From Botryllus schlosseri (Eukaryota): a stretch of DNA of 64,000 nucleotides. Location of the stretch: assembly GCA_051294905.1 (NCBI GenBank), contig CM119371.1:13146001-13210000 (forward strand), in the 5' to 3' direction. The translations under genes and the position numbers were made by a program. Positions 26,632 to 29,871 of the stretch are shown here, piece by piece (the stretch's first letter is position 1; every line of letters starts with the position of its first letter). Under the pieces are notes generated by a model. That model saw nothing but the letters and a program-made list of their open reading frames with translations, searched no databases and was not told the DNA's origin.

Positions 26632-29600
26632 CTATCTATGACAGTCTCGCAACATTCGCAGCTTGCTACGCATAGGCGCCGGCATGAGTCCACACTCCTT
26701 TGCTACCCGACGCTCAGCTTCATTGCGCAGAGGACCACTACCCCGCAGATACAACGACAGGTCAGGATGCTGGCACAGTCGCATAAACTGATCCTTTGTG
26801 AGCGATATCGGGCTTTTTACGGTGACCCGTTGACGCTTGAATGCGAGACGCGCAGCAGCAAGCGCCATGTCGTCTGGAAATAACTTGTGTTAGAGTATAA
26901 TTTATTGAATACGGTGCGAAACATGCGTACCAAGGGGGAGCAAAGCATCCGGCGATGATTCTCCGCTCGGTGAATACGCTCTCTCTGCGACCATTGAATC
27001 TGGCGCGGTGGCATTTGATTGCTGCGACTTTTCGTTGTCGTCTGCCAAGAACATATGGTGTAATACAATGTATAGGATAAGGCGCGACAGATGCTTACCA
27101 CGTGGGAGCAAATTATCTGTCGATGATTCTCCGCTCGGTGAATACGATCTATATGCTACCACTGAATCCGGCGCGGTGGCATTTGATTGCTGCGACTTGT
27201 CGTTGTCGTCTGCAAATAACGTAGAGTGGAATACAGTATTTTGTATAATGCGCGACGTATGCTTACCACGGGGCAGCAAAGCATCCGTCAAGGATTCTCC
27301 GCTCGGACGCGCTATCCCTTCCATCACTGAATCCGACGCGGCATCACTTGATTGATGCGGTTTGTCGTTTTCTGCAAATAACATGTATTAGAGTACATTT
27401 TATAGGACTAGGTGCGATGCATGCTTACCATGGGGGAGCAAAGCGTCCGCCGATGATGATCCGGTCGGTGAAGACGTGCTATCAACAACCACCGATTCCG
27501 GCGCGACTCCATTTGATGGACTTGTCTTGTCGGTGTCGGGCAAGTCTTCATTGGTCGACGGATGTGTGCCCGACGCTGTAAACAGTTCGCTGCTGGGTTC
27601 GATATGCTCGATCCGGGGCGACCTCTGGAAATTGGCGGGTTCGTGCGCGACTGTGCATGGTACAAGGATCAGGATTAACTCGCAATTTAACTCGGCACTA
27701 TCCGGTTGTCACTAGAACGTATACAACGGGGGAATGCCTGATACAGTGATAACGTATTACATAGTATTCATACACGCATACCATCACAATGAAGGACGTT
27801 CACAAGTTGAATTACGCTAATGAATAGGTAAAACCTCATACGTCACGTTTCTTACCGTATTATAGCGTACCTGTCGCGTTGCGTCCACGGGCATTTAGGT
27901 CCTCTAGTGCTGCGTCCGCATATATGGTGTTGTGTTTTGTTGCCAATGCGGCGTCAATCATGTGTCGGCCAGTGGCAGCACCCGCTGCTGCGCTTGCTGT
28001 CCGATATAAACCGTCATAATGTAGATTAGCGACCTCCACGGAATGGGACGAAGAAGCGGCGACGTCGTCTTTATCGCGCCGCGACCGGCCACTAGACATC
28101 GTCGCTAGCATCTTTCTGAGATGCTGGTACGAGAGCCCTTCCAGTCCTCGTCGCGCCATGTACGACTGTACGCATTTGGATAGCTGGATAATGGGCTGTC
28201 CCGATGCAGAGCGGAGAGCGGGCGAAGTACCAGGCCGCAACTGACGGTTGTTGTGCTCGCATAACTGAAAATAGTTAATGAAATGACACAATATATATAC
28301 GCGTATTGTCAATATGGGACAATGTTTGGGTATATTATATATACCAGTATGCAAAATCAATATTATGCTCACCGATTTGAACCGTCCGTATTGGGAATGT
28401 TCGAATACGACCATCCCTTGTACAGTTTTACTCTTGGTGTCGTTGACTTGTACGATTACCCGGGAGGAGTCTGTTATCGAACGCAACGGATTAAGTAATT
28501 CGTTGGCGGTGATACGTCGGAAATGTGACAGACGAGTACCGGTGCACGAACCGACGTCGATAACCAGTGCGGCCACGCAAACAGAAAAACACGCGTCAGT
28601 TATATCGCATTTCAAATCGTTTCGAAACGAATGTGACGACATCATACTGAAAAGTAAATTACGCATTGAATAGCCTTACAACGCATGCAAGCCACTATCT
28701 CACCTCTTGAACGCGGGCCAGTTAGCATTGATGATGTTCATGTCATTGGCCAGATGCTGACGATTTGCTTTATGCCTGCTCTGGCTCGTACTGTGACTTG
28801 ACATGTCCACTATCTGGAGTAGTCGCGTCTGATCGGATACTGACACAACTCTACGGAGCACTCCCGGGCAGTGCAAGCGTCCAAATTCTATGGTTCCGCG
28901 TACAGTCATTAGTGTTTTGAAAATTGTATTTGGTGAACGTTTTTTGTCGCGGCCATTTCCCCCCTTGTTTGAAACGTATTCCAATAACCATTCCGGATCG
29001 TTACGTAAGTGAACCCCAAACAGTTGCTTTACTTTTGACAGCACCATGTCGGTATTACTCCCTTCTAGTTGCCGTGCTTCTCGAAACGTGCGATACTTTG
29101 TTATAAGCTGTTTCGCGTAACAAGGTTGTTAACGGATCTAATTAACATTACCTCGAAATCTCATACCGTGTGCAGATCGTCCCAAAACGTTACTTTGCTG
29201 TAATTTTTCTGGTATTCGTTGCTACCAACTTTGTGACCGGATTCCAACTCGTTCTTGTGCATCTTTCTCCAATGGAGGGATACATAAGACGTTGCAATAG
29301 TTTTGTCACATATTTTACAAAACGTTCGTGACGATGAAGTGCTTGACGACCCATCTTCGTTATGGCGACTATATCTGACACTACATAACGTGTCGCTTTG
29401 AACATGTACGTTAGCGTACGCTGATACAACCTCTAACCTGTCGCATTGTTGTTTGGTCCAACCGTGTTGTCGTTGCAAATGTCGTTTACGATGCCCCAAC
29501 GTGAGCCTAGCACAGAGATGACATATGTCGGTGTCTCGCTTACGTCTGACAACGCCAATTCCATCGGCCACCTCCACCCTGTCTTGGTCATCCATCGCAA

Positions 29601-29871
29601 ATTCGCCACGCCTGGTGCAAAAAGAATAATTTATTCCGTAAGTAATCGCGAACAACTTTGTCACCAACCTAACATCGTTGTAGTCTTGTCCATCGTCTGA
29701 TGATTCGCTAGTGCAACGAAACACAAATATATAGGTACCGTATCAATTGTTCAATTTGAAATCGCATACCTGGACTTGGCAATGTCTGCGGTGAACATAC
29801 TGGGCGCTATCTTGCTCACCGGTTGATGTTTCCTGTTTGAAGTTGAGATATCATCGTTGCATTCGTCGTCC
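26632..29871 (-). CDS. Multi-exon tyrosine recombinase with two N-terminal C2H2-like zinc fingers and low-complexity C-terminal repeats (5' end not resolved)
   Basis: GT-AG, phase-consistent exons: 29871-29770, 29707-29669, 29611-29438, 29380-29167, 29107-28704, 28646-28373, 28264-27871, 27650-27429, 27371-27267, 27209-27099, 27041-26931, 26873-26632 (TAG); about 795 aa with no internal stop. YR motifs: CTGTRLS (R), NDTKSK (K), QHLRKMLAT (HxxR), SSHS (H), LHYD (Y). Zinc fingers: CHLC..HLQRQH and CKIC..HWRKMH. Confidence 0.85.
26931..27520 (-). repeat. Tandem exon+intron repeat (~162-168 bp, 4 copies) in the YR gene tail
   Basis: Repeated symmetric phase-1 exons encoding DDNEKSQQSNATAPDS..SPSGESS.D.LLP, each followed by a 57-nt intron. 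Confidence 0.9.

Follow-up and report, generated by a model that had tools for sequence, protein, structure and literature searches.

We analyzed a 64,000-nucleotide stretch of the Botryllus schlosseri genome (“the window”; C1:13146001-13210000 of a 495-Mb assembly, C1 being the contig that carries it), and found on its minus strand, at window positions 26632-29595, a gene that is predicted to encode a tyrosine recombinase (YR) preceded by two zinc finger-like motifs. The exon model, built from paralog conservation and GT-AG splice sites, comprises six exons with 561 codons and no internal stop, separated by GT-AG introns of 57, 59, 57, 108, and 997 nt from 5′ to 3′. The gene lies inside a large repeated element that sits between the two halves of a dispersed repeat, and we consider it likely that the gene product is the enzyme that inserts and excises this element.

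A spliced gene for a predicted zinc-finger tyrosine recombinase

The exons of the gene are as follows:

29438..29595, minus strand: exon 1, with the first in-frame ATG (29595-29593) and zinc finger 1 (CHLC...H...H, residues 25-44)
29167..29380, minus strand: exon 2, with zinc finger 2 (CKIC...HWRKMH, residues 74-94) and a conserved linker
28704..29107, minus strand: exon 3, an all-helical domain with the predicted fold of a YR N-terminal core-binding (SAM-like) domain
28373..28646, minus strand: exon 4, first half of the catalytic domain, with Arg I (R297, TGTR) and the beta-hairpin lysine (K330, DTKS)
27871..28264, minus strand: exon 5, second half of the catalytic domain, with the Q-H-L-R box (R400), His III (H424, SHS), and the nucleophile Y433 (HY)
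26632..26873, minus strand: exon 6, an 80-residue C-terminal tail and the TAG stop
26909..27505, no strand assigned: a 168-bp × 3.6 tandem repeat inside the 997-nt last intron

Three minus-strand open frames follow one another across this region, at 29742-29161 (193 amino acids), 29128-28700 (142 amino acids), and 28675-27860 (271 amino acids). Two introns, of 57 and 108 nt, keep the reading frame and contain no stop, and the open frames therefore appear longer than the exons. One of them, intron 1 (29437-29381, 57 nt), is an in-frame GT-AG intron between exons 1 and 2. The paralogs described below carry stops or frame changes exactly at these two introns. A sequence-only reading of the same DNA had placed twelve exons between 27871 and 29611; we find there the three long open frames with four introns (57, 59, 57, and 108 nt) and five exons. 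Nor does the gene end at 27871, as that reading had it: this position is a phase-1 splice donor, in phase with exon 6, which is conserved at the same relative position in three paralogous loci (L004, L005, and L006; 58-66% identity) and shows lower non-synonymous (pN 0.218) than synonymous (pS 0.759) divergence. The stop-free frame that it reported does extend across all 561 codons of the revised model. Additional 5′ exons upstream of exon 1 are possible. Four RNA runs bearing the same species label, of which 6-13% each was read, placed no reads on 26500-32500, which is no test of expression. The tandem array in the last intron (75% matches) is open in one minus-strand frame (161 amino acids) and is absent from the shorter introns of paralogs.

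Five active-site residues of a YR (R, K, R, H, and Y) are present in the expected order. Arg I, the hairpin lysine, Arg II, His III, and the tyrosine are encoded on the minus strand at 28534-28532 (TGTR), 28435-28433 (DTKS), 28123-28115 (H-L-R), 28045-28043 (SHS), and 28018-28016 (HY), and their spacing in the spliced protein is canonical (R297-K330, 33; K330-R400, 70; R400-H424, 24; H424-Y433, 9). The last two spacings are 22 and 9 in lambda Int and 23 and 9 in Cre, equal or near to those found here. All of these residues are kept in intact paralogs, and in a narrower alignment (A6) all 10 rows have R, H, and Y. The earlier claim of six catalytic positions in order was therefore right for R, K, R, H, and Y, which stand at the named places, and wrong for the histidine of the H-x-x-R box, which is displaced (Q-H-L-R).

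The first open frame contains two finger-like motifs, CHLC-x10-H-x4-H and CKIC-x11-H-x4-H, and the cysteines and histidines of both are kept in paralogs with only 30-34% identity (L009, L010, L021, L030, and L034), in agreement with the sequence-only reading. Pfam profiles of the zf-C2H2 type gave only sub-threshold matches (zf-C2H2_ZN292, E 0.015, in 1 of 24 members), and the fingers are C2H2-like by sequence pattern only.

We predicted structures with AlphaFold2 from the unspliced catalytic and middle frames. The catalytic-frame alignment has 52 rows, including 47 of the 50 stop-free genomic paralog pieces and four database fragments; three overlapping pieces of L028 and L029 and the duplicate loci L001, L002, L003, L008, and L013 were left out. 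The catalytic model is middling overall (predicted local distance difference test (pLDDT) 58, predicted template modeling score 0.58). In a structure search with this model against 48,161 chains, YR-fold proteins nonetheless occupied all of the first 28 rows (Z 10.0-5.2), led by XerA (Z 10.0; 152 aligned residues, 3.5 Å), a bacterial topoisomerase IB (9.6), IntI (9.3), and Tn1549 Int (9.1), and including Cre (9.0), XerD (8.7), lambda Int (8.6), Flp (7.0), TelK (5.7), and the Crypton-derived protein QRICH1 (5.2). Unrelated helical proteins followed at Z ≤ 5.0. With Foldseek, every match listed was a YR or topoisomerase IB chain, but the matches were weak (best E 4.7e-3). A search of the BFVD viral structure library returned only generic integrase, VLF-1, and topoisomerase rows, with no nearer viral kin.

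The middle frame gave a more confident model (pLDDT 87.5), for which VIA-align returned YR N-terminal core-binding domains in eight of the nine top rows (Z 8.7-7.1, a range that helical proteins can reach by chance), among them XerA 4-94 (Z 8.7), Brujita Int (8.6), XerD 3-100 (8.0), and lambda Int 74-175 (7.5). Since this predicted core-binding fold precedes the predicted catalytic fold, the domain order is that of a YR. Overall, the models support a YR/topoisomerase IB (DNA breaking-rejoining) fold in the catalytic part and, in the middle part, a core-binding fold of the YR type, in line with the fold that had been claimed from sequence. From N- to C-terminus, the predicted protein has two C2H2-like fingers, the core-binding and catalytic domains of a YR, and a conserved tail of 80 residues.

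Element ends and the target repeat

The gene is part of a 32.0-kb element with collinear copies on contigs C5 and C3. The element and its junctions are listed here in the orientation of the gene:

7774..39801, minus strand: element carrying the gene, 32.0 kb
39802..39807, minus strand: 5′ junction, where the core reads CTCTAG; the element bases after it make up one arm of a 9/11 inverted repeat
7774..7779, minus strand: 3′ junction, where the core reads CTCTAG (most other copies have CTCTAA); the second inverted arm comes before it
39802..40130, minus strand: dispersed target repeat, left part, about 75% alike between the C1 and C5 sites
7690..7773, minus strand: dispersed target repeat, right part, about 85 bp, with unrelated flanks beyond
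16958..18166, plus strand: open frame of 403 codons in which Walker A, Walker B, and motif C are spaced as in a superfamily 3 (SF3; D5/VapE-like) helicase; besides the recombinase, this is the element's other conserved gene

The copy on C5 (about 20750400-20785050) is collinear with window positions 7774-39801 at 99.5-100% identity, and differs from the C1 copy by a 2.3-kb insertion in C5 near 31770 and by 145 bp at a 27-bp tandem repeat. In the gene region the two copies show 10 differences in about 3.4 kb, and the frame is kept in both. The C3 copy (C3:8851048-8886783) is older and broken, with 94-98% identity to the element. The sequence-only reading had described the neighboring DNA as decayed and invaded by miniature inverted-repeat transposable elements (MITEs); nested repeats are indeed present (25418-25951 and 26909-27505), but the flanks of the gene are the interior of a 32-kb unit with a nearly identical second copy.

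Exactly at the element ends, identity drops: beyond them, the C1 and C5 sequences are about 75% identical for about 330 bp on one side and about 85% identical for about 85 bp on the other, after which identity ceases. The repeat to which these two flanks belong, one half each, is dispersed and abundant: a first look at the genome gave 2509 candidates. In three of three uninterrupted copies of this repeat the halves are joined directly, one forming a complete site and two having short deletions there. Each 32-kb copy thus lies inside a different old copy of the repeat, inserted at the same base. In a separate check on the origin of the target repeat, tRNA and Rfam scans were negative, leaving derivation from a tRNA unsupported.

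The junctions are precise. At the 5′ end the sequence reads ...CTCTAG then TACCCGGTCC..., and at the 3′ end ...GGATCGGGT CTCTA(G/A) and then the target repeat's right half. All seven 3′ junctions that we examined (in C1, C5, three elements on C15, and two on C3) fall at the same base, with six different outer flanks, and five of six 5′ junctions fall at the same place. In four of five elements with both junctions paired, the base after CTCTA is G where element DNA follows and A where target DNA follows. This pattern fits reciprocal exchange within a shared core, and does not fit target-site duplication. When the element ends are joined head to tail, they form inverted arms matching at 9 of 11 positions around a 7-bp spacer centered on the core, an arrangement that 19 of 500 shuffled sequences reach anywhere in 80 nt. 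We found no long terminal repeats (LTRs), terminal inverted repeats (TIRs), or further shared terminal motifs at the element ends; on the 5′ side of the element there are subterminal repeats of about 155 bp, at 39024-39484.

Three shorter relatives of about 16.9, 13.2, and 19.5 kb have the same ends (72-96% alike) and show no match to the YR or the helicase. They behave as non-autonomous derivatives would.

Relatives of the recombinase and other DNA in the element

The catalytic frame has 80 matches in the genome. The closest copies are identical to it on C5 and 98% alike in DNA on C3, the latter with an 11-bp deletion in exon 5; all three of these high-identity gene copies lie inside the 32-kb element, with none elsewhere. 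Other paralogs are 54-59% identical and mostly carry stops, and the majority of family copies are decayed by stops and frameshifts. The three-part architecture and the intron positions are common to subfamilies with 30-40% identity. Comparison of the window gene with a 56-69% identical paralog (L006) gave pN of 0.18-0.26 and pS of 0.76-0.82 (saturated), and comparison of L010 with L021 gave non-synonymous and synonymous rates of dN 0.076 and dS 0.524; between L006 and L007, non-synonymous and synonymous changes are about equal. By these sequence comparisons, the family has long been under purifying selection, and individual copies decay. The “recent activity or selection” suggested by the sequence-only reading agrees both with these values and with the two 99.5% identical, precisely bounded copies of the element.

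A subfamily with about 40% identity has intact frames in arrays with a period of about 17.5 kb on contig C30, and also occurs near contig ends. The C30 array repeats the recombinase gene at least 12 times, every 17-18.7 kb. In one member (L009, C9:3000-12999), (CCCTAA)n occupies bases 3-746 and the gene 4590-6174; in another (L021, C2:40577500-40585500), 950 bp separate the gene from an interstitial (TTAGGG)n tract at 1654-2121. The placement of this subfamily at chromosome ends recalls the telomere-repeat-specific YRs of crustacean nimaviruses, and related recombinases in this genome may be specialized on chromosome ends.

The helicase frame shows, by inspection, the motifs GTPGAGKT, DDAG, and ITSN. 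A language-model look-up (Atlas) placed it with DUF5906/VapE/Pox_D5 clusters (score 0.95), while Pfam, PHROGs, and PDB gave no match and the sequence databases only one distant relative. It has 68 matches in the genome, and those within 25 kb of a YR paralog lie at C1:23.06 Mb, C16:22.37 Mb, C10:2.54 Mb, in the window, in the C5 copy, and, in several cases, in a cluster on C3. Outside C3 this amounts to five YR-helicase pairs against about 0.02 expected by our own arithmetic from the match counts, which indicates that recombinase and helicase travel together in more than one element family. The C3 cluster (about 6.6-9.2 Mb) is a dense collection of mostly decayed recombinase and helicase copies, and may be a graveyard or a hotspot.

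Among 54 open frames of at least 80 amino acids in the element, we identified no other transposase, integrase/recombinase, or reverse transcriptase (RT) family, in a scan that small spliced exons could escape. Similarly, Pfam and PHROGs searches of stop-to-stop frames recognized no capsid, penton, or packaging ATPase, and would miss spliced or divergent genes.

Several repeats lie in and around the element. A repeat of about 530 bp resembling a MITE or a short interspersed nuclear element (SINE), with many dispersed copies at 83-95% identity, occupies 25418-25951, about 700 bp downstream of the gene’s stop codon. Downstream of the helicase frame, 18957-20985 is a tandem duplication of a 1,016-bp unit (95% identity). 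A segment of about 4.1 kb (29962-34075) that directly precedes the gene on its upstream side is also found without the gene at C3:4781102-4785386 and C3:5123337-5128654 (90-93%); it is either a nested transposon or a module common to truncated relatives. Outside the element, a 1.38-kb repeat at 42269-43650 has at least 38 copies at 96-98% identity on many contigs, and looks like a young, active transposon family.

A candidate integrase, its alternatives, and known systems

We propose, and hold it to be likely, that the product of this gene is the site-specific integrase/excisionase by which a family of large DNA elements (11-32 kb) moves. The proposal draws on the predicted pair of YR domains with its catalytic residues kept and on an att-like core with inverted arms, together with short homology to a single site in one repeat, the lack of terminal repeats, the non-autonomous relatives, and the presence of two near-identical copies at unrelated loci. 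These last two copies, with their precise junctions, are also signs in the sequence that the element has moved recently.

In the mechanism we envision, the element would at some stage be circular, with its joined ends forming an attP-like site of two imperfect 11-bp inverted arms around a spacer of about 7 bp that contains CTCTA. Recombinase protomers would bind the inverted arms, and Tyr433, together with Arg297, Lys330, Arg400, and His424, would cleave and rejoin strands within CTCTA, the sequence common to the attP-like site and to one position of the dispersed repeat, which would serve as attB. The outcome would be an insertion without long terminal repeats and with the core at both junctions. 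The zinc fingers probably add sequence reading of target or subterminal sites. We infer the circle, the role of the fingers, and the making of the junctions by the recombinase protein itself rather than by another factor.

Several observations weigh against this proposal. The gene is interior to the element, starting about 10.2 kb from the nearer end rather than at an end. A cut-and-paste transposon is another possible reading of the ends, with the short inverted arms as its TIR and the 5-bp repeat as its target-site duplication. One 5′ end (L049, C3:19961780-19961980) abuts the reverse-complemented right half of the target repeat in place of the left half, and is unexplained; an inverted insertion at the same site, a later rearrangement, and the palindromic CTAG in the core are possibilities. 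In the catalytic model, pLDDT is under 50 both in the insert that the intron encodes and from residue 204 onward, including the segment with His III and the tyrosine. In every intact member the Arg II box reads Y-Q-H-L-R-K, with H at -2 and Q at -3. The His II position is not universal in the YR/topoisomerase IB superfamily, and topoisomerase IB has a lysine there.

Furthermore, sequence methods link the protein to no YR family. The Phage_integrase profile (PF00589), to which the sequence-only reading had pointed, and other Pfam YR families were unmatched in all three frames (even at E ≤ 1) and in all 52 family members. There was no match in PHROGs (12 frames) and none in PDB by sequence or by profile, and hhalign of the family profile to lambda Int and Cre gave probabilities below 1%. 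An exhaustive phmmer search of 1.84 billion representative proteins returned four short fragments (100-210 amino acids) and no named relative; a word search of 5.8 billion proteins (“longer” lengths) returned none, and its profile version only two short fragments. With the narrower alignment, viral contigs gave no match; metagenome contigs gave one 17-residue match, which we judged to be chance. A language-model look-up placed the recombinase with integrase clusters (score 0.95), which we treat only as a lead.

Some of these points are shared by an alternative in which the recombinase is cargo or acts in replication, for example by resolving concatemers or termini like VLF-1 of baculoviruses and nudiviruses or like protelomerases, while another enzyme or host repair inserts the element with a 5-bp duplication. 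The internal position of the gene, the reading of the ends as 9/11 inverted repeats beside a repeated CTCTA, the presence of VLF-1, protelomerase, and topoisomerase IB among the fold matches, and the SF3-type helicase, which suggests that the element replicates itself, are all compatible with such a role. We nevertheless regard it as improbable: the element’s 54 open frames include no transposase family, every insertion is at one site of one repeat family, and the sixth base after CTCTA differs between the two junctions in four of five paired elements, following the right-hand flank.

The selection and gene structure data raise a second alternative, a domesticated or non-catalytic family of YR-derived host DNA-binding proteins, similar to the Crypton-derived DUF3504 genes, that by chance lies in a duplicated segment. 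Intron positions conserved between subfamilies of 30-40% identity, purifying selection, the displaced histidine, and QRICH1 among the fold matches are as expected for such a family, as is the distant subfamily found in arrays of about 17.5-kb period and beside telomeric repeats. Yet intact members keep R, K, R, H, and Tyr, unlike DUF3504 proteins as far as these are described in PMC3212892; most copies are decayed by stops or frameshifts, as in transposon families; and the closest gene copies are all inside a mobile element with precise junctions. We therefore consider domestication unlikely.

A third alternative is a small Crypton-like transposon, consisting of the YR gene and short flanks, that is nested in a larger unrelated repeat and moves only itself. 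Cryptons are described as encoding only a YR, with direct repeats of 4-6 bp and without terminal repeats (PMC3212892), and the collinear copies do differ by indels near the gene, at 27042-27049 and 30457-30470. The second of these, however, coincides with the 27-bp tandem repeat, the gene’s three high-identity copies never occur outside the 32-kb context, and at four further loci outside the C3 cluster YR paralogs stand within 25 kb of helicase paralogs, against about 0.02 expected. Independent movement of the gene is accordingly doubtful. Finally, plain segmental duplication without mobility, its boundaries being accidents of recombination between dispersed repeats, is hardly credible: both ends do lie in a repeat able to mediate ectopic recombination, but the flanks are two halves of one repeat copy split at one base, and the same split recurs at no fewer than six loci (≥6) with different outer flanks and elements 72-100% alike.

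We compared the element with known YR systems. In architecture, the closest published analogue is found in the endogenous nimaviruses of crustaceans, whose YRs, by the description in PMC10871703, combine a C2H2 domain and a SAM-like domain, are in some cases multi-exon, and integrate specifically into repeated host sequences (the telomere repeat and 28S rDNA). The authors of that work hold these YRs to be unrelated to those of DIRS, Enterprise, and Crypton elements. The likeness (C2H2, SAM-like, and YR domains with repeat-specific integration) is one of description only. As portrayed in the same source, nimaviruses have 200-580-kb viral genomes with genes like those of white spot syndrome virus, whereas here we find 32 kb in a host of the chordate lineage with no recognizable virion gene; the target here is an interspersed repeat rather than the telomere repeat or 28S rDNA (PMC10871703). 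Our search of 1.84 billion proteins found no nimavirus-type relative.

Crypton DNA transposons (Goodwin 2003, as cited; Kojima and Jurka 2011, PMC3212892) also resemble the element in part. In the account given there, recombination is held to act on their short terminal direct repeats, a circular form is postulated as intermediate, and the genes have introns; the present element is likewise a YR DNA element with introns, with direct CTCTA(G/A) repeats at both junctions, no TIR or LTR, and no RT found. It differs in that its unit is 32.0 kb with a helicase and much other DNA around a gene of about 3 kb, against a few kb for Cryptons as this source describes them, and in its strict target specificity and its zinc fingers in place of a GCR1_C-type domain (PMC3212892). 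There is also no match to DUF3504 or to a Crypton-type profile, and QRICH1 scores below prokaryotic YRs in the structure search. Unlike DIRS, Ngaro, and VIPER elements, the element shows no RT or RNase H family in its open frames, again within a scan that small spliced exons could escape.

A circular Starship intermediate is reportedly described in a 2026 preprint. The Starship and Enterprise elements of fungi are portrayed as large, cargo-bearing, in some cases site-preferring, and thought to be moved by a single YR, the captain, a DUF3435 protein at the 5′ end of the element (PMC10104507 and PMC8092012). The present element resembles Starships, so described, in being giant with a YR held to move it, and differs in its animal host, the internal position of its gene, and the lack of a DUF3435 match (PMC10104507, PMC8092012). 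The pairing of a YR with an SF3 helicase recalls polinton-like viruses and virophages, which one report (10.64898/2026.06.19.733378) presents as 15-45-kb integrating elements of protists defined by capsid and packaging genes; in the present element, no capsid or packaging gene was recognized by Pfam or PHROGs, in searches that would miss spliced or divergent genes.

Among structures, the Xer, lambda Int, and integron integrases (PDB 5hxy, 1a0p, 1z1b, and 2a3v) are the best matches for both domains, in the same order. Prokaryotic YR core sites consist of inverted arms around a 6-8-bp overlap, and the core site here has a similar layout. The protein differs from prokaryotic integrases in its zinc-finger N-terminus, its spliced gene, its eukaryotic host, and the lack of detectable sequence similarity. 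Full-text literature searches found no report of such a tunicate element, which does not prove that none has been described.

From these comparisons we put forward, tentatively and with somewhat less than even confidence, a broader reading: that the gene is the integrase of an undescribed class of 11-32-kb integrative elements in chordate-lineage animals, with their own SF3 helicase and a YR lineage unknown to current profiles, which target a single site of a SINE/MITE-like repeat through recombination of the att type. The helicase possibly points to an episomal, replicating stage.

YR elements are rare and poorly understood in animals, and a family that escapes Pfam and profile searches of billions of proteins indicates that such enzymes can be missed by standard annotation. 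Here a single genome shows the enzyme, the two ends of the element, the empty target site, and non-autonomous relatives, so a direct test of the att-type mechanism is possible with short DNA substrates. The insertion of 32 kb at one defined sequence would make such a eukaryotic recombinase a candidate tool for site-specific integration of large cargo. If our broader reading is correct, animals would have in these elements a counterpart of the integrative elements of bacteria, the Starships of fungi, or the polinton-like viruses of protists.

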